DNA of 55,026 bases from an uncultured Candidatus Saccharibacteria bacterium (GCA_964529025.1 CAZGUZ010000005.1:18129-73154), one strand, 5' to 3'. Counted from the first letter of the stretch, positions 9,837 to 52,610 are shown. A program made the numbers and translations. Notes: a model not told the origin generated them from the letters alone.

Positions 9837-10781
9837 CTACTTCCCCACCACTCCCCTTGTCTTTGCTCCAAAATATCCAAGCGCAGGAGTAATACCCTTG
9901 GCTTGTTGGAATTTAATGAGAGCAGATTGAGTAAGGGTGCCGAAGTAACCAGTAGCGAGGCCTGACTCTAGGTAACCTTGTTGTATGAGGAAGGTTTGGA
10001 GGGCGGTGACATCAGAACCACGTGAACCAAGGAAGAGGTCGCGGGTGTAGGTAGTCTCTGTTGATGTTTGTGGTACAGATGGAGTTGTGGGTGTTGTAGG
10101 AGTACCAAGAGCATTCACAAAGGTACGTGTAATTGGGCCAAAGTAGCCTGATGCTGGTGTGATACCAACAGATGTTTGGAATCGTGCAAGTGCTGCTTGA
10201 GTTTTAGATCCAAATACATTGATTTCATTACCTGGAGAACCTGGTCCTGTGGTAGATACAGTGAATCCTCGAGAGTTGAGGAAGCGTTGGAGAGCAATGA
10301 CGTCAGTACCTGTAGAGCCAAAGCTGAGGTCGCGGGTGAATATTGGAGTGTTAGAGCTTGAGGTTGGTGGTACAACTAGAGTTAGGAGTGGGATTGATGG
10401 AATAACTGGCGGTGTTGTGGTTCGAATACTGCCTCCTCCCCCACGGCGGCGGGATGCAGATGGAGTTGCTGAAGCATCACAAGCAGATGTGGTAAATGAT
10501 GTAGTTTGTGTTGTTGTTCCGTACGTATTTACTGCAAAAGCTTCGACAAAGTATGTAGTGTTACATGTGAGGTCTGTGAGTGTGTATTCGTGAGTACTAA
10601 GACTGTATCTTCCTTCTGTGGTGGTGCTCATACCGTATGCTAATGATGTTCCGTAGTTGAATCCCCTTGTGTGTGCTGGGGCAGAGCCGACATCGGTGAT
10701 GCTTGCTGATATTGTTGCTCCTGTTTGGGTGATACTTGATGTGGTGATTGAAGAGAGGGTGGTGGTTGGGGTTAAAGTGAG
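9837..10781 (-). repeat. Dispersed ~1-kb repeat, copy 1 (Ig/FN3 plus 2x PG-binding cassette)
   Basis: The 314 C-terminal codons align along their whole length with the 331 C-terminal codons of 22779..26603. Most residues are identical by eye, with long identical nucleotide runs. Confidence 0.85.
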
Positions 10782-13535
10782 GCGCATAAGTTCGCGTCCG
10801 ACGTTTGGTGATACTGCTGACATATATAACTCAGTCTCGTTGTTGGTTACGATCAAGTTTGCGGGAGCAGAGCTACCTGGTCCTGGGAATATATCAAAGA
10901 CATACGTTCCTTCGACAGTACCATCAGTCTTCCAAAGTTCTGCCCCATATTCTTCGTTCATACCTTGGAAGTATGCAACATCGCCGACAACCACAAGTGA
11001 TTGAAGTATTGATGAATACAATGAACCACCCGTCACACCATCTGATGTACCTTCGTATATATCTTTTATCATGTAAGTACCGCTTGTTGTTCCGTCAGAA
11101 GTCCAGAGCTCGAAGCCAGCATCTTCTGTCTGCATTTCAAAATATACTCGAGTATCACCTGCTACTAGTGGATCATACGACGCCGAAGTTTCTGTTTGCA
11201 TTATTGGACTACCTCCGTTTAAATCTTTTACAAGGACTGTGCCAACCGTTGTTCCATCAGTTTTCCAAAGTCGGTAGTTATCATCATTCGCATTATCGTT
11301 GGTGATAATAAAGATATTTCCATCAGCTGTAGCCGCCATACTTAAGAGTGATTCGTCGTCTCCTGCAAAGAAATCTTTAACAACAGTTGTTCCTTCTATT
11401 GTTCCGTCTGAGCGAATCAAAGCCCCGCCTCCGTCACCTGCGGCCTCAACACCATAGAAATATGCAACGGAATCAACCATCACCTGACTATTTGGAAAAG
11501 CGGTGAGTACAAAAAAATCAGTTCCTGTTATCAAGGTAGTACCGCCAGAAGTACCATCAGTACGCCAAAGACCGATACCCGAAGCGTCAGTTGCCGTAAA
11601 GAATAGGCTCGACGAAGCTGTCAGAAATCTCGTTGGCGCAGACGAACTTGAACCTGATCTTATATCCTTAACCATTACGGTTCCGCCACTCGTGCCATCA
11701 GAAACCCAGAGTTCTGTACCGTTTGTACCGTCGTTTGCAGTAAAAATAAGTTGCGAACCAAGTTGATTAAAGTTTGTTAAAGATGAGCCCGTTGTTCCTA
11801 CTCTTATGTCTTTTACGAGTACTGTACCACCTTCAGTTCCATCAGTTTTCCAGAGTTCTGCGCCATTAGCTGCATCTGTTGCAGAAAAATATGTCGTATT
11901 ACCGATCTTTAACATAGCACCGGTAGCACCTGAACCTGTTGTTCCACTAAAAACATCTTTAAGGAGTGCTGTGCCGCCCGTAGTACCATCAGTCTTCCAT
12001 ATTTCTGAGTTACTACTCGATGTAGCCATTCGGAAAACAAGTTCACCATTATTTGATGGTGCAACCATCGATATAGAAACTATACCATTCGTCCCAGTAA
12101 AATCTTTCACGAGCACAGTGCCACCTGTGGTACCGTCGGTCCTCCAGAGTTCTAGTCCATTTATTCCATCATCTGCAGCAAAATAGAGGTATCCATTGAA
12201 TACAAATGGTGTTGTAGGTGATGAACTGGCAATTCCACTACGGATATCTTTTACAAGTACCGTACCGCTTTCGGTACCATCGGTTTTCCACAACTCTGAT
12301 CCTGTTGTACCATCACTTGCCGAAAAGTATACTTCGTTATTATATAAGCCTAAATGAGAAAACGACGAACCACCAGCACCTGGGTTTATATCTTTAATCA
12401 TCACTGTACCTACCTCAGTACCATCAGTTTTCCAAAGTTCTGAACCATTAGTACCATCATTTGCGGATATAATTACACTGTTACCAATCTTTGAAAGAGT
12501 CATGATTACTGATCCATTTCCAGCTCCTGGATTTATATCTTTAACGATGGTTGTACCAACTGAAGTACCATCCGTTCGCCACAACTCCGTACCACTAGCT
12601 ACATTTGTTGCAGTAAAAAGTACAACGCTACTATCTAAAGACACAAAACTACCTGGTAAGGAATTTGCACTCCCAGGGTTAATATCCTTTATTTGTTCGG
12701 CCGCAAATGTGTTACCGTCGATTCGCCATAGCTCACGACCATTTGTGCCATCCTCACCACCTGTATAAATATACGAACCGATAGCGGATAAGTTTGTAGT
12801 AAGGCTAGGATATGTTCCTAGTGAATATGTTCCGAGTTCAGTACCGTCAGATCTAATCAGCGAACCACCTACCCCATCATCATTACCAAAAAAGAATATA
12901 TTGCTACCCACACTTCGCACTGAACCAGAAACATACCCAGAACCTGCACCTGCCCATAAGTTAGCAACCATGGATGTGCCACCGCTTGTACCATCCGACT
13001 TCCACAACTCTAATCCATTTGTACCGTCATTTGCGATGAAATATATGATTGAACCTATTACTGTGTTAACACTACTCGAAACACCACCGGACGATCCCGG
13101 TCTTATGTCCTTTACCATGCGAGTACCCTCTACTGTACCATCGGTCACCCAGAGTTCAGTACCATGTTCACGAGTCGATCCACGGAAAAATAGATAGTCC
13201 GTAGTAGTCCCCATAAACAGGAATGTTGAGCTGTCTCCAATAACAATATCCTTTACAAGTACGGTACCTACACCAGTGCCATCTGTTTTCCACAGCTCTG
13301 ATCCATACTCTGGTGTATTTATAACCGTGTAGATACTACCATTAAAAAGCATTGCGCTGGTCGGTTGACCCCCAATCGTACTGATTGTATTCGAATCAAT
13401 AACGACGCTCGGCAATTGAACCGCAAGAGCTTGCTGTGCAGTCATGAAAAACGACAGCGTGCAGCAAATTGCAAAAGTGACGAAATAAAATAGTGCCCTG
13501 GTGTGCATATTTCGAGCAGCGAAGGTCAACAACAT
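9837..13535 (-). CDS. Secreted ELWxxDGT-repeat beta-propeller protein with two C-terminal peptidoglycan-binding domains
   Basis: 1232 aa with a signal peptide. There are many repeats of G.ELW[KRV][TS]DGT..GT..VKDI.PG. An Ig/FN3-like module, SRRRGGGGS and two PG_binding_1-like repeats (GS.G.DV.ALQ.FL...G...G.FG..T..A...FQ) follow. Confidence 0.9.
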   Translation of the reverse strand: MLLTFAARNMHTRALFYFVTFAICCTLSFFMTAQQALAVQLPSVVIDSNTISTIGGQPTSAMLFNGSIYTVINTPEYGSELWKTDGTGVGTVLVKDIVIGDSSTFLFMGTTTDYLFFRGSTREHGTELWVTDGTVEGTRMVKDIRPGSSGGVSSSVNTVIGSIIYFIANDGTNGLELWKSDGTSGGTSMVANLWAGAGSGYVSGSVRSVGSNIFFFGNDDGVGGSLIRSDGTELGTYSLGTYPSLTTNLSAIGSYIYTGGEDGTNGRELWRIDGNTFAAEQIKDINPGSANSLPGSFVSLDSSVVLFTATNVASGTELWRTDGTSVGTTIVKDINPGAGNGSVIMTLSKIGNSVIISANDGTNGSELWKTDGTEVGTVMIKDINPGAGGSSFSHLGLYNNEVYFSASDGTTGSELWKTDGTESGTVLVKDIRSGIASSSPTTPFVFNGYLYFAADDGINGLELWRTDGTTGGTVLVKDFTGTNGIVSISMVAPSNNGELVFRMATSSSNSEIWKTDGTTGGTALLKDVFSGTTGSGATGAMLKIGNTTYFSATDAANGAELWKTDGTEGGTVLVKDIRVGTTGSSLTNFNQLGSQLIFTANDGTNGTELWVSDGTSGGTVMVKDIRSGSSSSAPTRFLTASSSLFFTATDASGIGLWRTDGTSGGTTLITGTDFFVLTAFPNSQVMVDSVAYFYGVEAAGDGGGALIRSDGTIEGTTVVKDFFAGDDESLLSMAATADGNIFIITNDNANDDNYRLWKTDGTTVGTVLVKDLNGGSPIMQTETSASYDPLVAGDTRVYFEMQTEDAGFELWTSDGTTSGTYMIKDIYEGTSDGVTGGSLYSSILQSLVVVGDVAYFQGMNEEYGAELWKTDGTVEGTYVFDIFPGPGSSAPANLIVTNNETELYMSAVSPNVGRELMRLTLTPTTTLSSITTSSITQTGATISASITDVGSAPAHTRGFNYGTSLAYGMSTTTEGRYSLSTHEYTLTDLTCNTTYFVEAFAVNTYGTTTQTTSFTTSACDASATPSASRRRGGGGSIRTTTPPVIPSIPLLTLVVPPTSSSNTPIFTRDLSFGSTGTDVIALQRFLNSRGFTVSTTGPGSPGNEINVFGSKTQAALARFQTSVGITPASGYFGPITRTFVNALGTPTTPTTPSVPQTSTETTYTRDLFLGSRGSDVTALQTFLIQQGYLESGLATGYFGTLTQSALIKFQQAKGITPALGYFGAKTRGVVGK

Positions 13536-22778: not shown

Positions 22779-23774
22779 CTACCGAGTAATAAAGCCCCTC
22801 GTCTTTGCCCCAAAGTACCCAAGCGCAGGAGTAATACCCTTAGCTTGTTGGAATTTAATAAGAGCAGACTGTGTAAGAGTACCGAAGTAGCCAGTAGCGT
22901 AGCCTGACTCTAGGTAGCCTTGTTGTATGAGGAAGTTTTGGAGTTCTGTGACATCAGAGCCACGTGAGCCAAGGAAGAGGTCACGGGTATAGGTGGTTTG
23001 AGTTGTTGTTTGTGATGAAGGTGTTGTTGAGGTTTGTGGTTTAGTTGGAGCTGTAGGAGTACTTGGTGTGATTGGAGTTTGAACTGGAGTACCAAGAGCA
23101 TTCACGAAAGTGCGTGTAATAGGGCCAAAGTAGCCTGATGCTGGTGTAATACCAACAGATGCTTGGAATCGTGCAAGTGCTGCTTGTGTTCTTGATCCAA
23201 ATACATTGATTTCATTACCTGGAGAACCTGGTCCTGTTGTAGATATGATGTATCCTCGAGAGTTGAGGAAGCGTTGGAGAGCAATGACATCGGTTCCGAC
23301 AGAACCGAAGGTGAGGTCGCGGGTGAATATAGTGGTATTAGAGCTTGTGGTTGGTGGTAGTACGAGAGTTGGGAGTGGTGTTGTTGGAGTAACTGGGGCT
23401 GTTGATGTGGCTGATGGTGATATACGTGAGCCTCCCCCTCCTCCGCGGCGGCGGGATGGGGTTGCCGAAGCATCACAAGCAGATGTAGTAAATGATGTTG
23501 TTTGTGTTGTTGTACCGTACGTATTTACTGCAAAAGCTTGTACGTAGTAGGTAGTGTTACATGTAAGATCTGAGAGTGTGTACTCGTGAGTACTGAGACT
23601 GTATCTTCCTTCTGTGGTGGTGCTCATACCATATGCTAGTGATGTTCCGTAGTTAAAGCCTCGTGTGTGTGCTGGAGAGAAGCCGACGTCGGTGATGCTT
23701 GCTGATACTGTTGCTCCTGTCTGTGAAATGCTTGTTGTGGTGATTGAAGAGAGGGTGGTAGTGGGGGTAAGAGA
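22779..23774 (-). repeat. Dispersed ~1-kb repeat, copy 2
   Basis: Same orientation as copy 1, about 12 kb away. Confidence 0.85.
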
Positions 23775-26603
23775 TACAACATATAATTCACTACCATACT
23801 GCGGAGTACTTGCAGAAAAATAAAGCTTATGAGTAATCTCCTGAAAACTTAAATATGGCAAAGAAAGTGAAGAACCTATCCCTTCTACAATATCCGCAAA
23901 TAAATAAGTACCCTCTGAAGTTCCATCCGTCTTCCATAGCTCTCTACCATGCTCAGAGTCAAAACCAACGAAATAAAATGTCTCTCCCACATTTTCATAG
24001 TTATTACCTCGAGAGTTATAGCCGCTACCTGAACTCACTCTTGAGTTTGAGGCGTATGCACCGTCAATTGTACCCGTACCTACATCCTCGAGTGGCGTAG
24101 AAGTTGTAGAAAAACCATCTGTAAACCACCATTCATAACCATATACTGGATGATCGAAGCTATAATAAATACCTCGAGTGGTCGGAACCATACCAATACT
24201 TGCAGACTCACTCGAAGTTGTCTTGAGTTGATGGATTGGAATTGTCCCCTCTGTTGTTCCATCAGATCGCCATAAACTAGTTTCATTGCTATTTCCCGCA
24301 TCTGAATTTCCTATAAAATACAAGTATCCATTACTCGAGACAATTAACCTGTCGACAATTGCATTGGATGAACTAATTGGCAAATTCTTTACAAGATATG
24401 TACCTGCAGATGTACCGTCGGTTCTTATAAGATCATAGCTACCAGTTCCGTCTGTCATTGAAAGATAAACAACTCCGTTGAGAATATCACCTTGAAAGTG
24501 TCCTGAATTTACTATTTGTCCACTTGCTCCCGTAGCAAAATTCTTTACTAAATATGTACCAGCATCGGTACCATCTGATGTCCACAGCTCTTTACCATTA
24601 GTTCCGTCATCTGCAAAAAAATACAATGATGATGTACCAGCCACAAAACCACCAGGACTTGAGCCTGTCGAACCACTCCGTATATCTTTTACCAACACTG
24701 TTCCCACCTCGGTACCGTCACTTACCCACAATTCAACACCTGAGGTTGCAGTATTAACAGTAAAAAATAACTTATCGTTAATAATTAATGAGTTTCTATC
24801 GTTACTTGAGCTTGGGTATGAGCTTGCACTTCCTGCATTTATATCTTTTACCATCATTGTTCCACCCTCTGTAAAGTCGGTTTTCCAGAGTTCGGTTCCA
24901 TTTACGCCATCATTATAAAAGAAATAAAATTCCGTACCGATTTTACCCAAAACTTCAAATGGGGATATATTTGGAACAACCAAAGAAGTCGAGCTCTCAG
25001 TACCATCAGTCTGCCATAAACCATAGTTTGAGGCCTGGTTAGTTGCATAAAAATAAGTTTCATCATCCCTGAATAAAAATCTGGATAGATTTGAACCCAC
25101 GTCTCCATTCGCAATATTCTTTACCATGACTGTACCCTCCTCTGTTCCATCCGTCCTCCACAACTCTGTACCATCAATTCCATTGTTTGCTGGAAAATAA
25201 ACATATGAACCAAAAGATACGAATTGAACAATTGGAGAAGATGGTGAAAATAGCGAAGGGGTAAAAGCGTATGTAGTCAAAGAGCTTGAAGAACCAGAAT
25301 AAATATCTTTTACTCGAATAGTACCGCTTTCAGTTCCATCGGTCTTCCATAATTCTCTGCCAGAGGTTCCATCATCAATACCAAGAATTAAACTTGTTCC
25401 ATTAAGGAGAGCGGTCGGAGAAAACATTGATATTCCACCAGAAGCATTGATGTTTTTAATCATAACGGTACCCACTTCTGTTCCATCTGATTTCCACAAT
25501 TCTATACCATTTACACCATCGTCTGCGGTGAAAATTATATTGTCTCCAAGCACTGCAATAATTGCAGGACTAGAACTAGCAATACCGGGGTTAATGTCTT
25601 TCACCATGACAGTTCCAGTCTCGGTTCCGTCAGATTTCCACAATTCTATGCCATGCGTACTATCTGAAGCGCCAAAATACACCAGGTCACCATGCGCTTT
25701 TAAATTAGTAAAAGTTGGGCTACTACTTCCAGTATTAATATCCTTTACCATATAAGTACCTGTTGCAGTACCATCGGTTTTCCATAATTCATTTCCAAAT
25801 AAGCTGTCATCAGCCGTGAAAAATACTGAGGTTGTTGACACAGTAAAATTTGCTGGACTAGAGCCTTGGGCACCTGCTCTAATATCTTTTATCATTACTG
25901 TACCTGTAGCAGTTCCGTTTGATGACCATAATTCATTTTGATTTCCCAAGGAAAGTGACGCACTAAAAATAAGTAGTCCATTGAGATTTACCAATGAGTT
26001 TTGGGCCATGCGCAGCGAAGTATTCGAGACTTGTACCGTTCCACTTGCTGTTCCATCAGTCCTCCAAAGATTAATTGCGCTACCTCCGGTAATGTTAGCT
26101 GCATAATATATTTGATTATCTACTTGAACCACATTTCCTGCATTAGTAGTAAGGCCCTGAGTGCCTGAACGTGCATCAAGAATAATACTTGTACCCTCTT
26201 CGGTTCCATCTGTCCTCCAAAGTTCCTGTCCATAGACACTTGAATACGGGAAAATAATCCAATATGGATCTATAAAACCATAGTAAAGACCTCCACCGCC
26301 ATTACTACCCACTTCTATGTCAGCAATACGATTTGTTCCCTCAGCTGTGCCATCTGATCTCCACCATTCAAAACCCGACTCTATATCATCAGCAAGAAGG
26401 ATAAAATGACCACCTGAAGTTGAAGCTGTGTGGAGACTTACATAAGAACCATTCGGAACAGCTGCTATATTTTTTACTAACTGAGGAACAGCGGCAGCTT
26501 GAGCATAATTTATTCCGTAAGCAAAAAAGGCAACTAACACAAGCAGTGCTAATGCATATTTACGTATAGTTATAAAAAATCGAGAGGTCGCAAAAATAGA
26601 CAT
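22779..26603 (-). CDS. Secreted ELWxxDGT-repeat beta-propeller protein with two C-terminal peptidoglycan-binding domains (paralog of 9837..13535)
   Basis: 1274 aa with a signal peptide, many ELW[KRV][TS]DGT repeats, an Ig/FN3-like module, SRRRGGGGGS and two PG_binding_1-like repeats. Confidence 0.9.
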   Translation of the reverse strand: MSIFATSRFFITIRKYALALLVLVAFFAYGINYAQAAAVPQLVKNIAAVPNGSYVSLHTASTSGGHFILLADDIESGFEWWRSDGTAEGTNRIADIEVGSNGGGGLYYGFIDPYWIIFPYSSVYGQELWRTDGTEEGTSIILDARSGTQGLTTNAGNVVQVDNQIYYAANITGGSAINLWRTDGTASGTVQVSNTSLRMAQNSLVNLNGLLIFSASLSLGNQNELWSSNGTATGTVMIKDIRAGAQGSSPANFTVSTTSVFFTADDSLFGNELWKTDGTATGTYMVKDINTGSSSPTFTNLKAHGDLVYFGASDSTHGIELWKSDGTETGTVMVKDINPGIASSSPAIIAVLGDNIIFTADDGVNGIELWKSDGTEVGTVMIKNINASGGISMFSPTALLNGTSLILGIDDGTSGRELWKTDGTESGTIRVKDIYSGSSSSLTTYAFTPSLFSPSSPIVQFVSFGSYVYFPANNGIDGTELWRTDGTEEGTVMVKNIANGDVGSNLSRFLFRDDETYFYATNQASNYGLWQTDGTESSTSLVVPNISPFEVLGKIGTEFYFFYNDGVNGTELWKTDFTEGGTMMVKDINAGSASSYPSSSNDRNSLIINDKLFFTVNTATSGVELWVSDGTEVGTVLVKDIRSGSTGSSPGGFVAGTSSLYFFADDGTNGKELWTSDGTDAGTYLVKNFATGASGQIVNSGHFQGDILNGVVYLSMTDGTGSYDLIRTDGTSAGTYLVKNLPISSSNAIVDRLIVSSNGYLYFIGNSDAGNSNETSLWRSDGTTEGTIPIHQLKTTSSESASIGMVPTTRGIYYSFDHPVYGYEWWFTDGFSTTSTPLEDVGTGTIDGAYASNSRVSSGSGYNSRGNNYENVGETFYFVGFDSEHGRELWKTDGTSEGTYLFADIVEGIGSSLSLPYLSFQEITHKLYFSASTPQYGSELYVVSLTPTTTLSSITTTSISQTGATVSASITDVGFSPAHTRGFNYGTSLAYGMSTTTEGRYSLSTHEYTLSDLTCNTTYYVQAFAVNTYGTTTQTTSFTTSACDASATPSRRRGGGGGSRISPSATSTAPVTPTTPLPTLVLPPTTSSNTTIFTRDLTFGSVGTDVIALQRFLNSRGYIISTTGPGSPGNEINVFGSRTQAALARFQASVGITPASGYFGPITRTFVNALGTPVQTPITPSTPTAPTKPQTSTTPSSQTTTQTTYTRDLFLGSRGSDVTELQNFLIQQGYLESGYATGYFGTLTQSALIKFQQAKGITPALGYFGAKTRGFITR

Positions 26604-33246: not shown

Positions 33247-33690
33247 TTACTTGTTATGAGCTTCAATGCTTTCCATAACCGCTTTTGCCTCCGGCGCTAT
33301 CGTTAGATCTGGTTTATCAACTCCGCAAAATGTTAGAGTCATCTCAACTGCGTGTCTTGCCTTATCTGAAGTGTGTTTTCTAGCGTACTCCAAACTTTTT
33401 TCAGTTAAAACAAAATTCTCAAAGATTTCAACGGATATAAGCTCTAAAAGATCCTTGTCAGTATTATCATGATTAAATTTATCATTGATAAAATCGAACA
33501 AAGATTGCAATTCACTATCTTCTGCTCCCTCTTTTTCCAAACGTTCCATAGCGTATCGGGCAAAAGCTGCTGTAACCATGTATGGCAGTTTCAAGTCTTC
33601 TTCGTCAAAAGATTTAAATTCTTCTGTTTCTTTAAATCCAGGGAACTGATTCGTGAAAAAATTTATTATGTTTTTATATGTTATTTCCAT
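33247..33690 (-). CDS. Candidate immunity protein for the upstream RHS toxin
   Basis: 147 aa, acidic and predicted helical. It starts 2 nt after the RHS stop on the same strand, which is the classic toxin-immunity position. Family not recognised. Confidence 0.6.
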   Translation of the reverse strand: MEITYKNIINFFTNQFPGFKETEEFKSFDEEDLKLPYMVTAAFARYAMERLEKEGAEDSELQSLFDFINDKFNHDNTDKDLLELISVEIFENFVLTEKSLEYARKHTSDKARHAVEMTLTFCGVDKPDLTIAPEAKAVMESIEAHNK

Positions 33691-33691
33691 A

Positions 33692-36600
33692 TTATTTATT
33701 CTTCGTCTTTAATGCATCCTTAAGATCATTTGAAATTTTATTTAGTACATTTTTCTCTTGAGGGTTTAATGTCGAACCCGAGCGCCTAAAGAGGTTATTG
33801 ATACGATTAATTGTCTCTTGTGCTTTAGTAGAGTGGAATTTTTTTCCTACCTTTTCTCCGATTCTTTGCAACTCGTATCTTACGGCATCAGCTGTGCTTC
33901 CACTTCCAATTTTTGCTCCAGCCCTGTAGTTATCTCTAATCAAACTGAGAACTTTTTGATTTTCTACCCCTTTCATCAAGGCTCGACCAGCGGTATTGGT
34001 TTGCTTGTACACTTGCATGGCTTCTCGACCTACAGCACCATATCCACCTGCCGGACCGACGATGCCAGCAACAAATCCTGATACGGCAATACTTCTTTCA
34101 AGGTAGCTTGTATTAGGATTGTTGATGGTCTGATATGCAGTATACCCGTCATAAACACTCAAGCCTGCTTCAGTTAGTGCCCAGAGTCCAGCAGCAGCTC
34201 CTGCCAAAAGCGGCACCACTTCACCTTGCGGATCCGAATTTTTAATCGGATTGTTGTTGGCATAAGAATATGAGTTCATCGCTTGAGGACTCATTAGATG
34301 CTGTTGAAGAGTTCTCTGGTAGTTCTGCTCAAACCCTAATGCCCCAATATCAAGAAAAGCAGGATCCTGACTCAAGAACTGCCCTCTCTTTGGGTCATAG
34401 TAACGGGCATTGAGGTAGCTCAGCCTGGTTACTTCGTCAAAGATCTCTCCAATATACTGACGATGTGATACGTCAGTACCAGCGTCTACTCTTTCGTTAC
34501 CATATGTAGTATAGTCCAAAACTTGAACAAGAGCACCTAGAGTATCAGTGACAAGTTTTGTTGAACCGAGGTGGTCGGTGTGAACATTCGTGGTTGATGA
34601 TGCAGTATTAACACCTCGTACCAGAGCAATGAGTTTTGCATTTGCAAAGATATTGTTTGTGGTTGTAGCACCTTCGATTATTTGATAGGTATTTGGATAA
34701 TAGGTGGTTAAAGAACCTACAGTTGTTTTTACACGCGAATTCGTATGATCGTACGTATGTGTAACGAGTGTGGTTGGTGTAGTAGCTGTGTCAGAGATTG
34801 TGGTGAGGCGGTTGGCGTAGTCGTAGGTGTAGGTTTGGGTAGCGTAGGTGCGGAGGTTACCCTTTTTGTCGTACGTAAGGGGGTTATTGCCTATTTTTGT
34901 TGGAGCGTGTGGGTTGGCAAATGATATACCAGCATGAGCACTTGTTGCCCCTTCGTATGCATAGTTACCAAGAGCATTTGAAGTAATATTGCCGATTTTA
35001 TTGTAGGTAAAGTTTTCAGTTACTGTTCCACCGACAGATGCTAGAGTCTTTGCTGAAATAAGGCGATAGTAGCCATCATACGTATAATCAACAGCTCGAC
35101 GCGCTTGCGTTACAGCAAGATCAGTTAAGCGAGTAATGTTACCAACTTTGTCATAGGTATAGACAGCATCTTCATAGGTAGTAGTGCCCTTTGTAACTTT
35201 ACGATTTCGTAAGCGGTACAATTCCTGAGCATCATAGGTATATGTCGTAGTAACTCCCGAAGCTAGTTCTTCGGTAAGAAGAGCGCCCGTTGGGTGATAG
35301 TTATAATTATTTACCAGATTTTGAATTGGAGCTGTCGGGCTCAATTGAACACGCACATTTTCTACCTTGCCGAACGGATTATACTGATACATTACCCGCA
35401 TAAGGTTAGGATATATGATCAATGTTGGATTACCCTGAATATCGAGTGTTGTAAGAGTCGTATAAGTTAGTGGTGAGCCAATTATAGTACGAGATTCTTG
35501 TACAATTCGGCCTCGAGGGTCATAGACAAAGCTTTGTGTTCCACCGTCTGACTGCACACTACATAATCGACCTTTACCCCACGATCCGCATGTATCATAG
35601 GTATACCTCACATCAACGTGCGGCGTTGTTGAACTGTCTTCGGACAAGATTCGATTAAGAGCATCGTAACTATATGTACGTGTCATACCTTCCGGATCAA
35701 TACTTGTGAGCATATTCCCTTCAGAATCATAGGTATACTTATACGTGCCGAAAGTAGTGTCAGTTTTTGCATGAAGGTCCTGTGCTGTTAAACGACGACC
35801 TAAAAGATCATACGTAAAGTATCGCTCATTTCCTAAAGCATCGGCAATTCCTGTAAGATTTTTGTTGGCATCGTAGCCGTACCATGTAATATCGTAATGG
35901 GTTGGCGATGACTCATCAATGCGCGTCATGTTTCCATAGGCATCATAGTAAAGCTTTTTACTTGCCTTAAGTGGATCAGTACTTGTTATTGTCCAATCGT
36001 TATACACATAAGTAGTTTCGCCAACAATATGAGCTTCGGAAAGAATGCGATCAAGAGCATCATACTTAAACGTAATTAAAAGATTAGGTTGAGTTTGGAT
36101 CGGAGTACGCTGTAAACCAGTACCTGTATAGGGGAGCGATTTTGTACCTATGAGCGTTGGCCAACTATAGATTGTATCTTGAATAATAACGCTTGATGCA
36201 TCTTCGGCTCGATTTCGCTTTTGAATTTCTTGGCCAAAGCTATTTTTATACGATATTTCAAGCTGTTGCAAAGTATCATCAAGATAGCGCACTGTAGTTA
36301 TTCGAGGATTTGAGCGCGTATCGTCATAGCTTATTCTTTCGGCAAGTTGAGTCGCAGCAGTAGAATCACGAGCAACATATGTATCGCGCAAACGGCGCAA
36401 ACCATCGTAGGTATAGCGTGTTACAACGTTCATTGAGTCAATAACCTGCATAGGCTTACCCGAAACATAGTCATAACTTGTAATGACTCTTTGATTCAAA
36501 GGATTCGTAACACTTATCAAAAACATATCCGAAGAATCAGAAACATACCGTGTCGTATTGCCACGTGTATCTGTTACTGTAGTAAGCATTCCTCGGGGAC

Positions 36601-39600
36601 CATAGGTGGCAGTAGTCGAAGCAAAACTTGTAGCATTAATTCTAAACTCTTTACGTGTTGGCAAACCAAATGAAGCCGAGCCGAAAGCTAAGCTATCGTA
36701 CAATGCCCGACTTTCGCTCACAGTAGCACCAAGAGCGTTCGTACGAACCGCCGAAGCCAGAGTAAATAAACCAAGAGCAGGATTACGAGCGTAGGTATAC
36801 GTTGTTGTATATCTATCAGCACTTGCTCCTGAACCATATAAATCAGCAAATGTACCATTTTCATACCCTACAACACGACCCCACTCAATATACTTTTGAA
36901 GACGACCATTTTGTGTATCGTACTCATACGTAAATGCTTTTGAGGCAGCCGAAGAATCACCATCAAAATCCATAACAATTTCTTGTAATGGTACAACGAT
37001 TGAGCGATTTCCATTGCTATATGATGACCATGACGTTAAAGTCTGAGTCATCTTTTGTCCAGCAGCATTATAAATTTCTTGGCGATATACTTTGCCAATT
37101 TTTGCTATTCCGTCGGCAATTTCTCCTAGGCTTGTTTGACTTTCGTTTCCTTGGTGAAAATAATAGACCGTACTTCTTTGTGGTAACTTTTCGGTAACTT
37201 TTTCAAAGCCAGCAAAGCGGCGATCGAATGGTCCATCACGGCGAGAAATACCATTTTCATAGGTATATGATGTTGTATATACAGAACCTGTAATAGTGTC
37301 TTTTTCTTCAATTTTTGAAACTACATCAATTGGCCACTGCAATCGTGGGTGTGGTATTACACCCTTTGTTGTCAGCTTTTTAACGCTGTCATAGGTAATG
37401 GTTGTTTCAAGTCCTTGAACCCCTGTTATTTTTACAAGATAATCTTGGTACAGAGCATTGTTTTCGTGAAGTTCGTTTTTTGGAATATTTCGTTCCGGCA
37501 AACCATTGTCGTAACGAATATCTCGTGTAGATGCAAAGAAAATATCTGTTCTTCCGTCTCCGTTCATATCAACGAATCTTCCGCCAAGATCAATATGGTC
37601 AAAAGTTAAATATGCTGGAACACCAGCAGCGAGAGGTTTCCATCGAATACCTTGAGCCGTATTTATTCCGATGAGCACACGAGTTGTATCTAATTTCTCG
37701 TGGTATATAATGTCGACCAAGCCATCTCCGTTTACATCGTTAAACTGTGGTGCATAATCTAAGCGCACCATAGTTGAGTCATTAGTAAATTTAAATACTG
37801 CAATATCTACAGACGGAGTCATACCCTCGGCTGGTACCCATGTTCCCGTACCAGTATTAATGTAGACCATTCTTAATGACGCAACCTCTGGATCAGGAGT
37901 ATCGAATGACCTTAGCTGTGAACCACTCGCATACATGATGTCAGTCAGACCATCATTATTGATATCTGCAAAACGCACTCCGCCATCAAACTTTTCTCCA
38001 CTTTCTGTGATACGAAGCGGTTGCGGCAGCACAAAGCGACTATCTAAAACCCAATTGCTTCCATTGTTAATATAAATACCAGAATCTGACACAATATCGG
38101 GCAATGCATCACCATTAACATCTGCAATTTGATTTTGCAAATCACCCATACCCCTCTGAATTACACGCTCGGAAAGTCCAGCAGTATCTACAAATCGTAT
38201 AGGTAGTCTGAAGCTTTGCGATAGATTCCAGCCTTCATCAAAACCGACAGAGACTGAGTTAATGTCTATATCGACCCTATTTTCTCGATACTGATATGAC
38301 TGCAAAAAATCCATGAAGCCGTCTCCGTTAACATCAGCTAAGCGTACACCATTATCATAATCTTTATCAGAATTTGGTCGGCGCAAGAAAAGATTAGGAA
38401 TCTGTAAAGTAGAGGACTTAGAGAAACCGTAACCAGTATTTAGGTAAACACCGCTATCTGGAGTCTCTCTACCATCATCCAAATGGCCGCCATGTAAGAT
38501 ATCCGGTAAACCATCAGCATTGACGTCGGCTATGCGAGCAGCCTTATCTTTCACTTTTCGAACGCCTCGTAGTGGTGTTGTTTTATCAAATGTATAAAAC
38601 TCAATATATGAAAATGGCTTTGGAGAAGGTTCCTGAAGCGTATTTTGTGTAAAATAATTTGCTGGCTGTTTTTTGTAACCAAAAATAACTTCGGGGAGCT
38701 CATTAACCACGTCACCGTTATAGCCAGTTTCAGTAATGCCTTCAAGAAGTGTGCGAGTACCATTTACCCCCGTTCCATAGCGAAGCTTATATGATCGAAC
38801 AACAACATTCTGTGAAAGAACTTTAATTTCTTGAATTCGATATTTTGTAATTACAGGAAAAGCAGAAGCGTACGATGTTACAACATCTTCACGAGTAGAT
38901 CGAACAAATTGAATAGCATAGATTCCGGGGAGCGAAGCGTGATTTGTATATGATATTGCCACTGGATATACATTTCCATCGACATTTTCATAGGTATAGT
39001 TAACGGTATTTCCGAGTGGATCTTCGATGCGCTCAAGATACCAGCGATATGTTTTTTGAGCATTCTGAGGATCACTCAAACGTGCGCTCGAATTTTGCCC
39101 AAAATAATATGAAATGCCTTGTGTGTCGGTAATTTTCCACACATTTCCGTAATAGGTATATGAATGGTACTTACCCGAATCAACCTTAGGCACAAAGTGA
39201 CTTGAATTTGTTGATGTGGCGAGTTCCCCATCGAGTGAAGAATAAAAAGTGGGTATAGTATAGAGTTTTTCTACGCCAAATTTATTAACTCGCTCAATAT
39301 ATGGTATCGACACTGACCAGCCATAGCCAAGCCAGCTTGCATCGTTCTTTTCTTGACTGTTGTACACAAGTGAAATATCTGGACCAATGCCGTTACGACC
39401 TTCGGGAATAGTTAAAGGATATTCATAGGTATATGCGCCCGAGAATGTATCAGTTTTGCCACGCGGAGCTGGACTTGATTGAGCTTTTTGAGCAGTATCT
39501 GTTGCTCCATATGATTCAGTAATTGAAGGAACCGGATCGGCCGCTGGAGCAGCATCACGATTTTCTTCTGTTGGAGAAGTTGAAGTTACTGTATCTGCCT

Positions 39601-39886
39601 CTATAGGTATTTGTGTAGGTTCTTCGGCACTTAATGCTGATTCACCCACTGTTGGAGTAACTATTGCCGGAGTAACTACTGCTAGATTTATATCCTCTGG
39701 AATAGCCACTTGCGGCATTACAGCAGCTTCAGAGTCTGAAATCGTAGACGAAACAACCCCAGTACCTTGATTGCTGGGGGTTTCTTGAGCGTACACCATT
39801 ACAAGAGGGTTTCCGAGGTTGAGAACACAAATACAGAGTGCAATAACTTGAGCGCAGAGCTTTCGAAGCTTTGAAAGTTTATTCAT
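33692..39886 (-). CDS. RHS/YD-repeat polymorphic toxin (SpvB/TcB-like N-terminus, FG-GAP/VCBS repeats, RHS shell, variable C-terminal domain)
   Basis: 2064 aa with a signal peptide. FSGAYTYEYPLTIPEGRNGIGPDISLVYNSQ is SpvB/TcdB-N-like. There are several DVNGDG..D repeats and dozens of YD repeats (Y.YD..GN). The core ends at NNPIKNSDPQGE, followed by a 175-aa tail. Confidence 0.9.
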   Translation of the reverse strand: MNKLSKLRKLCAQVIALCICVLNLGNPLVMVYAQETPSNQGTGVVSSTISDSEAAVMPQVAIPEDINLAVVTPAIVTPTVGESALSAEEPTQIPIEADTVTSTSPTEENRDAAPAADPVPSITESYGATDTAQKAQSSPAPRGKTDTFSGAYTYEYPLTIPEGRNGIGPDISLVYNSQEKNDASWLGYGWSVSIPYIERVNKFGVEKLYTIPTFYSSLDGELATSTNSSHFVPKVDSGKYHSYTYYGNVWKITDTQGISYYFGQNSSARLSDPQNAQKTYRWYLERIEDPLGNTVNYTYENVDGNVYPVAISYTNHASLPGIYAIQFVRSTREDVVTSYASAFPVITKYRIQEIKVLSQNVVVRSYKLRYGTGVNGTRTLLEGITETGYNGDVVNELPEVIFGYKKQPANYFTQNTLQEPSPKPFSYIEFYTFDKTTPLRGVRKVKDKAARIADVNADGLPDILHGGHLDDGRETPDSGVYLNTGYGFSKSSTLQIPNLFLRRPNSDKDYDNGVRLADVNGDGFMDFLQSYQYRENRVDIDINSVSVGFDEGWNLSQSFRLPIRFVDTAGLSERVIQRGMGDLQNQIADVNGDALPDIVSDSGIYINNGSNWVLDSRFVLPQPLRITESGEKFDGGVRFADINNDGLTDIMYASGSQLRSFDTPDPEVASLRMVYINTGTGTWVPAEGMTPSVDIAVFKFTNDSTMVRLDYAPQFNDVNGDGLVDIIYHEKLDTTRVLIGINTAQGIRWKPLAAGVPAYLTFDHIDLGGRFVDMNGDGRTDIFFASTRDIRYDNGLPERNIPKNELHENNALYQDYLVKITGVQGLETTITYDSVKKLTTKGVIPHPRLQWPIDVVSKIEEKDTITGSVYTTSYTYENGISRRDGPFDRRFAGFEKVTEKLPQRSTVYYFHQGNESQTSLGEIADGIAKIGKVYRQEIYNAAGQKMTQTLTSWSSYSNGNRSIVVPLQEIVMDFDGDSSAASKAFTYEYDTQNGRLQKYIEWGRVVGYENGTFADLYGSGASADRYTTTYTYARNPALGLFTLASAVRTNALGATVSESRALYDSLAFGSASFGLPTRKEFRINATSFASTTATYGPRGMLTTVTDTRGNTTRYVSDSSDMFLISVTNPLNQRVITSYDYVSGKPMQVIDSMNVVTRYTYDGLRRLRDTYVARDSTAATQLAERISYDDTRSNPRITTVRYLDDTLQQLEISYKNSFGQEIQKRNRAEDASSVIIQDTIYSWPTLIGTKSLPYTGTGLQRTPIQTQPNLLITFKYDALDRILSEAHIVGETTYVYNDWTITSTDPLKASKKLYYDAYGNMTRIDESSPTHYDITWYGYDANKNLTGIADALGNERYFTYDLLGRRLTAQDLHAKTDTTFGTYKYTYDSEGNMLTSIDPEGMTRTYSYDALNRILSEDSSTTPHVDVRYTYDTCGSWGKGRLCSVQSDGGTQSFVYDPRGRIVQESRTIIGSPLTYTTLTTLDIQGNPTLIIYPNLMRVMYQYNPFGKVENVRVQLSPTAPIQNLVNNYNYHPTGALLTEELASGVTTTYTYDAQELYRLRNRKVTKGTTTYEDAVYTYDKVGNITRLTDLAVTQARRAVDYTYDGYYRLISAKTLASVGGTVTENFTYNKIGNITSNALGNYAYEGATSAHAGISFANPHAPTKIGNNPLTYDKKGNLRTYATQTYTYDYANRLTTISDTATTPTTLVTHTYDHTNSRVKTTVGSLTTYYPNTYQIIEGATTTNNIFANAKLIALVRGVNTASSTTNVHTDHLGSTKLVTDTLGALVQVLDYTTYGNERVDAGTDVSHRQYIGEIFDEVTRLSYLNARYYDPKRGQFLSQDPAFLDIGALGFEQNYQRTLQQHLMSPQAMNSYSYANNNPIKNSDPQGEVVPLLAGAAAGLWALTEAGLSVYDGYTAYQTINNPNTSYLERSIAVSGFVAGIVGPAGGYGAVGREAMQVYKQTNTAGRALMKGVENQKVLSLIRDNYRAGAKIGSGSTADAVRYELQRIGEKVGKKFHSTKAQETINRINNLFRRSGSTLNPQEKNVLNKISNDLKDALKTKNK

Positions 39887-49247: not shown

Positions 49248-49510
49248 CTAATTCCCCACCACTCCCCTCGTCTTCGCCCCAAAGTACCCCACTGCAGGAG
49301 TAATATTGTTAGCTTGTTGGAATTTAATGAGAGCAGATTGAGTAAGTGTGCCGAAGTAGCCAGTAGCGTAGCCTGACTCTAGGTAACCTTGTTGTATGAG
49401 GAAGGTTTGGAGTGCTGTAACGTCGGAGCCACGTGAGCCAAGGAAGAGATCGCGGGTATAGGTGGTTTGAGTTGTTGTTTGTGGTACAGATGGAGTTGTG
49501 GGTGTTGTAG
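49248..49510 (-). repeat. Dispersed repeat, copy 3 (last PG-binding domain plus Thr/Pro linker only)
   Basis: The nucleotide sequence 49251-49510 closely matches 9841-10100 and 22783-~23000, for example ...ttgttggaatttaatgagagcagattgagtaag.... Confidence 0.8.
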
Positions 49511-50657
49511 GTGTTTGTGGTGTAGCAGCGGTGAGTTCAGCAATACGAGCTTGTGTAAGGGGGCCCATAGTGCCAGTTGGTGTAATATTGTTTGCTTGCT
49601 GGAAGAGTTTAAGTGCAGCTTCAGTAGCACGTCCAAAGTACGTTGTTTCTTGGCCTTGTGATCCATTACCCTGTGCAGCTACGGTATATCCTTGTGAGTT
49701 CAGGAAGCGTTGGAGAGTGCGGACATCTTCTCCTGTAGTTCCTGATGTTAAGTTACGTGTGAATACGGTTGAACGTTGTGTGCTTGGGGGAAGAGTTGAT
49801 GTGTTTCGGGGTGCTGAGGGGGTTGAGGGGGTTGATTCAATTGTTGGAGTACGTACCACTCTTCCTCCACTGCTGCGGCGGCGGGATGGGGTGGGTTCGG
49901 GGTTTGGTGTTGTAGGGGCATTAGGGTCAATGACAGTACTGAGGTTAGTTATTGTAGTGTTAGTGAGGTTAATTGCTTCATTGCCTGAATAGTCTCTAAC
50001 TGAGTTATCTCCTGCTGTATATGACACTGTTACTGTATTACCTTGATATATAGTTGTTGTACTTACGAGGAGTATTGTTGAACTTGCAAGAGTTACTGAT
50101 ACTGGTGTAGATGTTGCGCCATTAATGGTGATGATGTAGTCAGTGGTTGTTGGAGCACCAATAGTTACGTCCTCAAGGAATTCACTGTATTGCAAGTATA
50201 TTGTTGTTCCATCAGTTGATGTTGTTGCTGATGACAGAGTTGGAGCTGTGGTGTCGGGGCCGGCGTTGAAGATGGCGAGGCGGCTGTATGAACCTTGACC
50301 TAAATACATGAGTTCATTTTCTTCATCATAATCAGCGAACTCCGCTATGACTGAGGTTGAAGAAGCAACATTCGCATCAATAAGGCTATTTGATTCGAAA
50401 GTTTCCCTACCCGCATATGCTATTGCTGGTTCATTATTCTCAATTTGTGCAACATTGAAAATCTTAATACCTCCACCAACATATGTAATAAGTCGATCAT
50501 TTGAGTAAGCCAAGGCGCCTACACCACCCACAGTTCTTCGTCCCTTTATTTCATATGTACTTGTTGTAAAGTTTGGTTGACCAATGACATTCTCCGCCAT
50601 ACGGCCACTCGTAGTTGTTGCTGCATCAAAAACCATAATTCTTCTGCTGTCAGACAC
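49248..50657 (-). CDS. C-terminal part of a split NHL-repeat wall-binding protein (Ig-like module plus two PG-binding domains)
   Basis: 469 aa with no signal peptide. The N-terminus continues the NHL-like repeat of the upstream ORF. It contains SRRRSSGGR and two PG_binding_1-like repeats, and the C-terminus is near-identical to those of the ELWxxDGT proteins. Confidence 0.75.
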   Translation of the reverse strand: MSDSRRIMVFDAATTTSGRMAENVIGQPNFTTSTYEIKGRRTVGGVGALAYSNDRLITYVGGGIKIFNVAQIENNEPAIAYAGRETFESNSLIDANVASSTSVIAEFADYDEENELMYLGQGSYSRLAIFNAGPDTTAPTLSSATTSTDGTTIYLQYSEFLEDVTIGAPTTTDYIITINGATSTPVSVTLASSTILLVSTTTIYQGNTVTVSYTAGDNSVRDYSGNEAINLTNTTITNLSTVIDPNAPTTPNPEPTPSRRRSSGGRVVRTPTIESTPSTPSAPRNTSTLPPSTQRSTVFTRNLTSGTTGEDVRTLQRFLNSQGYTVAAQGNGSQGQETTYFGRATEAALKLFQQANNITPTGTMGPLTQARIAELTAATPQTPTTPTTPSVPQTTTQTTYTRDLFLGSRGSDVTALQTFLIQQGYLESGYATGYFGTLTQSALIKFQQANNITPAVGYFGAKTRGVVGN

Positions 50658-50666
50658 ATATAATTT

Positions 50667-52610
50667 CTATCGCACTCCATCTATTGCAAGTCCTTGAGGT
50701 GCACTACCGAAATTAGTTTGAGTATATGCTGGGGAAGACGAAAATGTAGTATTACCAATAACACTGATCGCGGCTTCTCCATCAGTGATACCGTCAGATA
50801 TATTGTACATGTAAACAATTGATGATATCTCATTTACTGCAAATAAATACCCTGTAGTTGTGCTGTATACCAAAGCGCCGGGTAATCGAATATTTGTTGC
50901 ACTCGTTGATCCACCAAAAGTTTCAGTAAAGTTAGTTTTTCCCAAAACGTTCGTGGCTGGTTCTCCATTTACGATAGTAGATGTGTCAAATACTAATATT
51001 CGGTTATTAGTATAATCTGAGACAAATAACCTATTATTCGCCGAATCGAAAGCGAGCCCTGTCGGCCTACTCATTCCCGTCTGGGTTGTAGAAGCAATGG
51101 ATGTTGTAAAGTCAGGCTGCCCTAAAACATAGTCAGCTTCGCGGTCGATAAGTCGGTGTGAGGAGTCGAGATTAAATACAAGAACACGGTTGTTATTTGG
51201 ATCTGACACAAAAAGTCGATCGTTAACTTTATCTATAATTGGAGCCATTCCGTAACCATTGAATGTGGTTGAGCGTGCAAACCCATTATTACGATTGCCC
51301 GAAAAGAAATTTTGTAAGGACATATTACCTGTGGCTGTATCAGTATTTTGTCCAAGAACCGCCACCGCTGGCTCCCCCATACTGATATTCTCGACATCAA
51401 AAAATAGAATTCGATTTTGGTTTGCACTGTTCATAACTAGAGTTGTACTCGCAAATGCTAGGCCACCCCAATTCAATGTTGTGGTACCAATCGGTAATGT
51501 ACTCCCGTTAGTTGATGTTACTGGAACCCCCAAAGCACTCACAAAAGTTCCTGGAGTAGTAATACTTGTTGTATTGTATATTGTAACCCTCCTCTCATTG
51601 GTCACAAAAAGATATTTACGCACTGGGTCGAAAGCCAGGCCAGATACATTTGCTGTTGAAAGCGCAGGATTAGAGCAACATGTTCCACTATTAATAGTTA
51701 CTGATGTTTGAGTGAGTACACCGAGAGCTGGTTCGGTATTGGTGATATTTGCTACATCGAAAACCGAAACTCGTCTACCGTTTCCAACATATAAATACTG
51801 GCGTTCATACTCATACTGAAGCGCAGTTACAAACTGTAGTCCGGTTGCCGTTGAAGAAGCAATATTTGTCGTAAAATCTGGCTGGCCAAGAACGTTCACG
51901 GCCGATTCACCATTAGTAATTGTTGTCACATCGAATACGAGCACACGAAAATTATCCTCTTCTCCCACGAATAGTCTATTATTAACAGTATCGACAGCCA
52001 CAGCTTTAGGGTCAAAAATCGTTGAAGCTGTGAGACCTGGCTCTCGGGTAGTAAAATCAGGCTGTCCGAGTACATAGATAGCAGCCTCGCCATTAGTTAT
52101 ACTTGCCACATCGTAAACAAGTACACGGTTACCTATATTATCCGCGACGTATAACAATTGTGTTGTTGAGGCATAAGCAAGACCCGTGGGGGTAGAGAGT
52201 CCTGTGGCTGATGTGACAGCGGTTCTGGTTACAAAGTCAGGCTGACCGAGCACGTAGTCTGCCAGAGCATCGATAGGACGAAGATTTTCGTCGAGGTTAA
52301 ATACTAGAATGCGGTTATTGCCAGAGTCTGAAGCAAAAAGTCTTCTTCCGGTCTCGTCAATTACTACCCCCACCTGCAAAGCTGAGCCCGATGATGCCAA
52401 TCCAACCCTCCCTAGTTTCGCACTATTCGGATTCAATCCCGTATAATCAAGAACAAACGGATCAGCATCAGGATCAACATACTGACCAATCATATCAACA
52501 GCATCTTCAATTGGTACAAGAGGGGCTGCAAAAGCAGAACTACTCAAAAGCCCCATTGCTACAGCAAAAAAACATATTGCTAGTGCCTGTGATACAAGAT
52601 AGTTCTTCAT
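50667..52610 (-). CDS. N-terminal part of a split secreted NHL-repeat beta-propeller protein
   Basis: 647 aa with a signal peptide (AICFFAVAMGLLSSSAFA). About 10 repeats of the type VLGQPDFTT....P.GLA.D....LFVSD..NNR.LVFD. It ends at a TAG that is in frame with ORF 49248..50657. Confidence 0.8.
   Translation of the reverse strand: MKNYLVSQALAICFFAVAMGLLSSSAFAAPLVPIEDAVDMIGQYVDPDADPFVLDYTGLNPNSAKLGRVGLASSGSALQVGVVIDETGRRLFASDSGNNRILVFNLDENLRPIDALADYVLGQPDFVTRTAVTSATGLSTPTGLAYASTTQLLYVADNIGNRVLVYDVASITNGEAAIYVLGQPDFTTREPGLTASTIFDPKAVAVDTVNNRLFVGEEDNFRVLVFDVTTITNGESAVNVLGQPDFTTNIASSTATGLQFVTALQYEYERQYLYVGNGRRVSVFDVANITNTEPALGVLTQTSVTINSGTCCSNPALSTANVSGLAFDPVRKYLFVTNERRVTIYNTTSITTPGTFVSALGVPVTSTNGSTLPIGTTTLNWGGLAFASTTLVMNSANQNRILFFDVENISMGEPAVAVLGQNTDTATGNMSLQNFFSGNRNNGFARSTTFNGYGMAPIIDKVNDRLFVSDPNNNRVLVFNLDSSHRLIDREADYVLGQPDFTTSIASTTQTGMSRPTGLAFDSANNRLFVSDYTNNRILVFDTSTIVNGEPATNVLGKTNFTETFGGSTSATNIRLPGALVYSTTTGYLFAVNEISSIVYMYNISDGITDGEAAISVIGNTTFSSSPAYTQTNFGSAPQGLAIDGVR

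Follow-up and report, generated by a model that had tools for sequence, protein, structure and literature searches.

A predicted Sec-exported SpvB-RHS polymorphic toxin from a Candidatus Saccharibacteria bacterium, with a tip of a large uncurated family and a putative DUF7674 immunity protein

The B and C components of the toxin complexes (Tc), as in Photorhabdus TcdB2-TccC3 and Yersinia YenB-YenC2, form a BC cocoon in which an SpvB-type domain, an FG-GAP propeller and a TcdB_midN region are combined with an RHS shell and an RHS core bearing a DPxG-type self-cleavage site, with a variable cargo past the junction. In WapA of Bacillus subtilis and other Sec-exported RHS toxins of monoderm bacteria, a Sec signal and RHS repeats are associated with a C-terminal toxin that is followed by its immunity gene, and no specialised injection system is involved; WapA possesses wall-binding repeats, is not known to have the SpvB, propeller and TcdB_midN half, and has tips that are tRNases. 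The Rhs effectors of the proteobacterial type VI secretion system (T6SS) and the C-terminal toxin modules (CdiA-CT) of contact-dependent growth inhibition (CDI), by comparison, depend on PAAR/VgrG or two-partner delivery. RHS polymorphic toxins with a ‘TcdB/TcaC’ trafficking mode are among the entries of a 2012 catalogue (PMC3482391), and a report from 2018 mentions an RHS toxin and immunity gene of a Saccharibacteria genome (PMC6031116), so that such a pair is not new as a kind in the candidate phyla radiation (CPR). Here we describe a locus in a 55,026-nucleotide stretch of DNA from an uncultured Candidatus Saccharibacteria bacterium (GCA_964529025.1, CAZGUZ010000005.1:18129-73154; the whole stretch is referred to as the window), in which the listing of open reading frames (ORFs) contains an uninterrupted ORF of 2064 amino acids (aa) on the minus strand (33692..39886) and, directly 3' of it on the same strand, an ORF of 147 aa (33247..33690). 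Taken as a whole, the locus is in all likelihood a polymorphic-toxin module of two genes from a monoderm-type bacterium with a small genome, probably of the Patescibacteria/CPR.

The domain anatomy of the 2064-aa protein and the position of its junction are evident from profile matches and motifs (Table 1). Its N-terminus has the n-region, h-region and AXA-like features of a signal peptide, as judged from the sequence features alone (4 Lys/Arg among the first 9 residues, then a hydrophobic stretch with a Kyte-Doolittle 19-residue mean of 2.07, then VYA/QE), and the profiles PF03534, PF13517 and PF12256 all scored above their cutoffs ahead of the RHS shell. The SpvB-type region was additionally matched by PRK15244 (residues 228-305) and by SpvB itself (PDB 6p0x, E 2.9e-7), while the shell was matched by PF05593 over five stretches (E 4.8e-18), by TIGR01643 (E 5.9e-15) and by the solved Rhs cocoons 7q97, 8uy4 and 8cp6 (PDB, E 1e-15). 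TIGR03696 (Rhs_assc_core) covers residues 1792-1888 (55 bits against a cutoff of 32.5) and the junction DPQGE occupies residues 1885-1889; self-cleavage is predicted after E1889, and the Asp residues of the two upstream RHS-core motifs are presumably catalytic, by analogy with TcC and Rhs. An original prediction, made by a model from the DNA alone, had called the gene an RHS polymorphic toxin with an N-terminal signal peptide, an SpvB/TcdB-N segment, DVNGDG-type units, a YD/RHS run and a core ending at a variant RHS boundary, and the Pfam and NCBIfam matches and motif positions agree with each of the domains named.

No PAAR or prePAAR domain was matched in the protein by Pfam or NCBIfam, and no cell-wall-binding domain was present among its Pfam matches at E <= 1. 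‘Fused TcB-TcC-type cocoon’ is a more fitting description of the carrier than ‘WapA-like’, because the SpvB/propeller/TcdB_midN half is present and wall-binding repeats are not. The carrier departs from the Tc BC cocoons in having B and C fused in one chain with a predicted Sec signal, in having no TcA nearby, and in its cargo, an all-alpha tip of small size that has its own immunity gene, rather than a eukaryote-directed ADP-ribosyltransferase. A Pfam scan of the 30 other ORFs of the window revealed no genes for T6SS, type VII secretion (T7SS), type V/two-partner secretion (T5SS) or TcA, in agreement with the earlier claim that T6SS, T7SS and TcA genes were missing from it, and no other ORF in the window exceeds 1274 aa. 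Since none of these export or delivery genes is found there, the original proposal of Sec-dependent export stands for the window; the accompanying label ‘WapA-like’ is imprecise, given the TcB-like N-terminal half and the lack of a wall-binding domain.

The same domains bear on another reading, in which the protein would supply the BC part of a genuine Tc-type (ABC) toxin, with TcA encoded elsewhere in the genome and a eukaryotic target, or some other membrane, reached via TcA. The SpvB domain, FG-GAP propeller and TcdB_toxin_midN region are TcB hallmarks, fused here to a TcC-like RHS core. However, no TcA-like gene was detected in the window or among the called genes flanking two related loci (L001 and L002, described below), the tightly coupled immunity gene and the orphan immunity genes of relatives point to a bacterial target, and the tip family is also found on CdiA and T6SS Rhs carriers, which are antibacterial; we therefore regard a Tc-type toxin as highly improbable.

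The 175-aa tail that follows DPQGE (33695-34219) comprises a PT-TG-like segment and a basic tip. The tail returned nothing significant in Pfam, NCBIfam or a PDB sequence search, the sole Pfam hit being a chance-level match to DUF2378 (E 0.0088) below its cutoff. The last ~100 residues nevertheless match, at 33-47% identity, the C-terminal ends of proteins from Escherichia coli, Salmonella, Dickeya, Erwinia, Xanthomonas, Cupriavidus and others that carry the annotation Rhs, VENN pre-toxin (CdiA) or PAAR. Searching 1.84 billion representative proteins with a profile of the tip family recovered 2280 clusters (at 50% identity) at E <= 1e-3 and 1510 at E <= 1e-10, and the match lay at or within a few residues of the C-terminus in all 150 of the matches listed. 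A scan with one genome per species placed the tip in 68 loci from more than 12 phyla, covering Pseudomonadota, Myxococcota, Acidobacteriota, Chloroflexota, Planctomycetota, Spirochaetota, Bacillota, Cyanobacteria, Chlamydiota and Campylobacterota, together with Oligoflexales, amoeba and arthropod symbionts and one Bathyarchaeia bin. Its carriers include SpvB/TcdB_midN-RHS and plain RHS proteins, filamentous haemagglutinin/PT-VENN, PAAR, PT-TG and PT-HINT proteins and a gp19 tail-tube protein. Taken together, the terminal position and the variety of carriers show the tip to be a modular C-terminal family of predicted toxins.

This family is very large and is covered by neither current Pfam nor current NCBIfam. 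No curated Pfam toxin family was matched by 123 of its members (E <= 0.1), the tip gave no match in NCBIfam, the family profile found no PDB sequence at E <= 10, and no motif matching that of the tip appears in the available portion of the 2012 polymorphic-toxin catalogue. The original prediction had been unable to place the basic domain in any toxin family; this holds for Pfam, NCBIfam, PDB and Foldseek, although the domain proves to be a member of a huge uncurated family. It may already bear a provisional label (STox_n, PT_n) in recent surveys, one of which lists ten STox families as ‘not determined’ (PMC12994826).

The T6SS Rhs and CdiA-CT proteins of E. coli, Salmonella, Erwinia and Cupriavidus share with the window protein the homologous ~100-aa tip, the motif DLYRxxAKxGSGSTADAVRYExxTGExVGGxxHxxKA and a DUF7674-type gene directly 3', but differ from it, apart from their delivery, in the junction (DPxGL or VENN, compared with DPxGE in the window) and in the linker or entry domain ahead of the tip. 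Across the family the consensus is LYRPxAKxGSGSTA[DA]AVRxExxTGxxVGGxxHxQKA...WLxxNP...DRAAAENV, and the near-invariant residues of the window tip are Y1987, R1988, G1994, G1996, S1997, T1998, R2003, E2005, H2018, K2021 and D2054. An AlphaFold2 (AF2) model of the tip is all-alpha, with a predicted local distance difference test score (pLDDT) of mostly 89-97 (82 in one block); the GSGST stretch forms a cap at a helix N-terminus, and H2018 and K2021 are located at the start of the next long helix.

In E. coli, tip region matches were found in 510 of 5426 complete genomes (~9%), and Salmonella members of the family also exist. In E. coli F9792 (L079, 6802-8045) the tip is located in a truncated Rhs remnant beside a decayed T6SS cluster and an ISEc1 element, and is annotated as ‘RHS ... 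core’ next to a 125-aa ‘hypothetical protein’; RefSeq assigns no function to either gene. Separate plasmids of the amoeba symbiont Candidatus Caedibacter acanthamoebae carry two tip/immunity loci (L011, L016). The locus in the Bathyarchaeia-labelled bin (L039) may be archaeal or a binning error.

The original prediction had also proposed the adjacent, acidic 147-aa ORF as a candidate immunity gene. Its product, with a pI of 4.64 and no hydrophobic segment, matches PF24722 (DUF7674; E 3.5e-9, 37.2 bits against a cutoff of 27) over residues 10-113 of 147, and has a C-terminal extension of ~25 aa which most DUF7674 members do not have. The gene junction reads AAT AAA TAA t ATG, with one spacer base between stop and start codon, consistent with the 2 nt originally reported if these are counted to the A of ATG. 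A jackhmmer search seeded solely with the 147-aa protein, and targeted at the 1379 ORFs (>= 70 aa) from the 68 tip loci of other phyla, gave 60 matches. In 55 cases the automatic flagging had picked the matched ORF as the immediate 3' neighbour of the tip; judged by coordinates, the remaining five are adjacent genes that the flagging passed over or further copies 3' of the tip. The spacing between tip and immunity gene is typically -4 to +5 nt. A profile search of a protein database with the immunity protein found 93 proteins, most of them with PF24722 and all named ‘hypothetical’ or ‘DUF7674 family protein’, and an orphan CdiA-CT of Erwinia is followed by a weak DUF7674 match (E 0.004). The tips are mainly basic (median pI 9.35, 83% above 8) and their partners acidic (median 4.69, 88% below 5.5), and a strongly hydrophobic segment occurs in only 3 of the 60 immunity proteins, that of the window not among them. 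Because the pairing directly 3' of the tip is conserved across phyla, DUF7674 is assigned as the immunity family of the tip; on the evidence of sequence and gene order, the two families form a conserved toxin/immunity pair, which strongly supports the immunity gene originally proposed.

An AF2 model of the 147-aa protein is all-alpha (pLDDT 96), and Foldseek gave no significant match to it, the best (E 1.1) being a TOG/HEAT-like helical repeat. Profile and structure searches of the kind that the original prediction had suggested gave no significant match to a curated family or solved fold for the tip and identified the 147-aa protein, through Pfam, as DUF7674.

A partner protein of this type could also be accommodated if the ~100-aa C-terminus were structural or regulatory cargo with DUF7674 as its chaperone or partner, or if the two formed an intracellular toxin-antitoxin or RNA-regulatory pair. 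The tip has no homology to any known enzyme, and in enterohaemorrhagic E. coli (EHEC) an internal fragment of RhsF acts with RhsFI in RNA regulation and is not toxic (PMC7618764), although that is a different family. Against this, about ten polar or Gly positions of the tip are near-invariant across phyla, which suggests catalysis; the domain is terminal in the matches listed and swapped among at least five delivery scaffolds; and the opposite charges of tip and partner fit toxin/immunity pairs. A non-toxic role accordingly seems very unlikely indeed. Identity of the pair with RhsF/RhsFI was considered separately and rejected, RhsFI being beta-rich (PMC7618764) and DUF7674, in the AF2 model, all-alpha.

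Close relatives of the window protein provide evidence of polymorphic behaviour, and the DPxGE junction is common to all of them. At two related loci (L002, 2924-10450, and L003), a 2012-aa SpvB-RHS protein aligns to window residues 81-1888 with 32% identity and the alignment stops at the junction, which there reads DPLGL; its own tip is a LysM + YkuD-like (HGG..SRGCI) module. A 2358-aa relative (P0125) is 53% identical over its last 490 residues, whereas its shell is only 32% identical. The closest tail relative bearing an organism name is in a 692-kb Candidatus Paceibacterota genome (CP129473.1; L001, 1-8957), where an orphan cassette is located 1.8 kb downstream of the main SpvB-RHS gene; it begins MDPGGEF, that is, with the junction itself, and encodes PT-TG, the same tip and DUF7674 (E 9e-21). 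These alignments show that related shells carry different predicted tips, with the switch at the junction. The original prediction had suggested that the rest of the genome be scanned for orphan cassettes sharing the DPQGE junction; the window itself holds a single tip, a single immunity gene and a single DPxGE junction.

At L002 the RHS gene is followed by two multi-pass membrane ORFs and then by an orphan DUF7674 gene, 81% identical to that of the window, with no tip beside it. A metagenome contig (L080, 1553-3075) carries a 383-aa ‘mini-RHS’ with its own signal peptide, an RHS core only, a PT-TG-like segment and the tip; its junction has degenerated to DENGK and its DUF7674 gene overlaps the stop of the tip gene by 4 nt.

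These relatives also bear on the question of the target. The same machine could have as its main target the host bacterium of an epibiotic CPR cell, which would be lysed or made to release nutrients, and not competing kin, with the immunity gene serving only against self-poisoning during synthesis. The small size of the Paceibacterota genome with the closest named tail relative, the description of Patescibacteria as host-dependent epibionts (PMC13622651) and the presence of several large wall-associated surface proteins in the window would all suit such a role. The orphan DUF7674 gene of L002 and the orphan tip/immunity cassette of L001, however, are the signature of strain-against-strain antagonism, and this tip also arms CDI and T6SS Rhs systems, whose targets are mainly closely related bacteria; a weapon directed chiefly at the host is, in our estimation, unlikely, though well short of negligible.

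For the polymorphic toxin with its DUF7674 immunity partner, we propose that the 2064-aa protein would be exported by Sec and that its SpvB-type domain, FG-GAP propeller, TcdB_midN region and RHS/YD repeats would fold into a closed cocoon. The RHS-associated core would then cut the chain by aspartyl self-cleavage after DPQGE, at E1889/V1890, with the 175-aa cargo kept inside until delivery; we infer export, cleavage and encapsulation from the domain content. The cargo would have two parts, first the Gly/Ala-rich helices resembling PT-TG, which are a candidate aid to membrane entry, and then the ~100-aa basic all-alpha enzyme tip, whose site of action would be the target cytoplasm. Three observations point to that site: signal peptides and membrane segments are missing from the immunity proteins, the tip occurs on CdiA-CT modules with an upstream entry domain, and toxin and immunity protein have opposite charges. 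The translationally coupled 147-aa DUF7674 protein would bind the tip directly and block it in the producer and its kin.

As to the activity of the tip, its Gly-rich helix cap and the accompanying Arg, Glu, His and Lys are suggestive of an enzyme that binds and cleaves a phosphate ester. The tip might thus attack a phosphate ester, most likely in nucleic acid (a nuclease), via the GSGST helix cap and R2003, E2005, H2018 and K2021, an assignment that we offer tentatively and with somewhat more doubt than confidence. The preference for a nuclease derives from other small basic tips (PT1, PT7 and Rehh) having proved to be nucleases. The orphan tips Tox-REHH (Rehh/STox_30), PT1 and PT7 are likewise small, basic and widespread C-terminal tips without database homology and with acidic immunity proteins, and those tested were DNases (10.64898/2026.09.22.753552; 10.1101/2021.10.19.465003). 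Identity with Tox-REHH was rejected, as Rehh has three conserved His that bind metal and Imm22 as its immunity protein (10.64898/2026.09.22.753552), whereas the window tip has a single conserved His and is paired with DUF7674. For PT1 and PT7, crystal structures have been reported (10.1101/2021.10.19.465003), and Foldseek of the tip model against the PDB copy gave no match to either.

Several observations weigh against the proposed toxin mechanism. Foldseek searches with the AF2 tip model gave no significant match, the best being E 1.8 in PDB and 0.66 in BFVD, and an enzymatic activity of the tip has no homology support in Pfam, NCBIfam, PDB or Foldseek. About 9% of the tips are acidic. The window holds no known translocation partner such as TcA, and the PT-TG-like segment is the only candidate for taking the cargo across the target membrane without TcA, T6SS or CDI machinery. 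The original prediction had likened this Gly/Ala stretch to PT-TG modules, but the window copy itself gives no PT-TG (PF14449) match at E <= 1. In a homologue (P0004, 193 aa, Candidatus Paceibacterota) that aligns with 97% of the tail at 43% identity, the segment aligned with residues 1890-1959 matches PT-TG at E 1.5e-12. In the AF2 model residues 1890-1959 form helices with pLDDT 43-84, and the function of PT-TG has been described as poorly characterised (PMC13483458). Residues 24-60 of the homologue, in its PT-TG region, faintly resemble tail residues 87-124 (DNYxxAxxxxxGSxDAxxxxxxRTGxxV, pairwise E 0.003). Homology of the tip core to PT-TG was considered and dropped, as the hidden Markov model of the tip scores the PT-TG region at an independent E-value of only 0.35.

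A more comprehensive reading would combine all of these elements: the tip as a structurally new, uncurated yet common enzyme family (2280 clusters, more than 12 phyla), DUF7674 as its dedicated immunity protein, and delivery in CPR bacteria, without injection apparatus or TcA, through a Sec-exported BC-type cocoon and a PT-TG-like self-entry segment. This combination is doubtful when all its parts are taken jointly; if correct, it would represent a TcA-independent route for RHS cargo into the target cytoplasm. The pairing described above would give DUF7674, a family with no assigned function, a role as an immunity protein, and would define a large tip family with members in such readily tractable bacteria as E. 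coli and Salmonella. The locus is of interest chiefly because both a new toxin fold and the function of a DUF could thereby be easily approached by experiment. The relatives described here show, moreover, that in tiny Patescibacteria-like genomes tips are swapped at the junction and that tip/immunity cassettes and immunity genes occur as orphans; such genomes have no known injection systems, which raises the question of how RHS cargo enters without TcA, T6SS or CDI machinery.

Table 1. Features of the toxin and immunity genes, with window coordinates and the evidence for each assignment.
Feature	Residues	Coordinates	Strand	Evidence
Putative Sec-type signal peptide	1-33	39788..39886	-	MNKLSKLRK, hydrophobic core, VYA/QE; sequence features
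Low-complexity linker	34-160	39407..39787	-	T 14%, A 13%, P 11%, S 11%, E 9%; no Pfam match
SpvB / TcB N-terminal-type region (FSGAYTYEYPLTIPEGRNG...)	~156-440	38567..39421	-	PF03534 SpvB, E 6.6e-18
FG-GAP beta-propeller	454-781	37544..38527	-	PF13517 FG-GAP_3, E 1.8e-14; six DxNxDGxxD units
TcdB_toxin_midN region	766-902	37181..37591	-	PF12256, E 6.1e-15, 55 bits against cutoff 24.8
RHS/YD-repeat shell (predicted cocoon)	~903-1791	34514..37180	-	PF05593 RHS_repeat, TIGR01643 YD_repeat_2x
RHS-associated core, bearing RYYDPKRGQFLSQDP and ending in NNPIKNSDPQGE	1792-1889	34220..34513	-	TIGR03696
Degenerate PT-TG-like pre-toxin segment	1890-1959	34010..34219	-	Gly/Ala-rich amphipathic helices
Basic all-alpha putative toxin tip	1960-2064	33695..34009	-	Family conservation, pI 10.4, AF2
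147-aa acidic cytoplasmic protein, putative cognate immunity protein (DUF7674)		33247..33690	-	PF24722, pI 4.64

The same locus was seen in independent assemblies, one of which (Logan SRR10036065) spans the whole gene and calls this same 2064-aa product, while others, including GCA_013566075.1, contain only the 3' part of the toxin gene. Because an independent whole-gene assembly gives the same product, the 2064-aa ORF is not an assembly artefact, and the interruption in better assemblies against which the original prediction had cautioned is not seen in Logan SRR10036065. The toxin gene, at 41.5% guanine plus cytosine compared with 41.9% for the window, is therefore not compositionally foreign; the immunity gene (34.9%) is more AT-rich than both. 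A promoter and terminator scan of the locus gave a result no better than that for shuffled sequence.

Housekeeping, cell-wall and surface-protein functions account for the 30 other ORFs scanned in the window. The neighbouring genes encode DnaK, DnaJ, aminoacyl-tRNA synthetases, a Mur ligase, FemAB, MurG, FtsW, ScpA, ScpB, ribosomal proteins L9 and L21, DnaB, RecR, RmuC and large peptidoglycan-binding proteins. Two proteins of ~1250 aa, encoded on the minus strand at 9837-13535 and 22779-26603, each end in tandem PG_binding_1 domains, and two smaller ones on the same strand have PG_binding_1 with an SWM repeat (49248-50657, 469 aa) and NHL repeats (50667-52610, 647 aa); the four, all encoded near the toxin locus, have the appearance of a group of large surface proteins associated with the cell wall.

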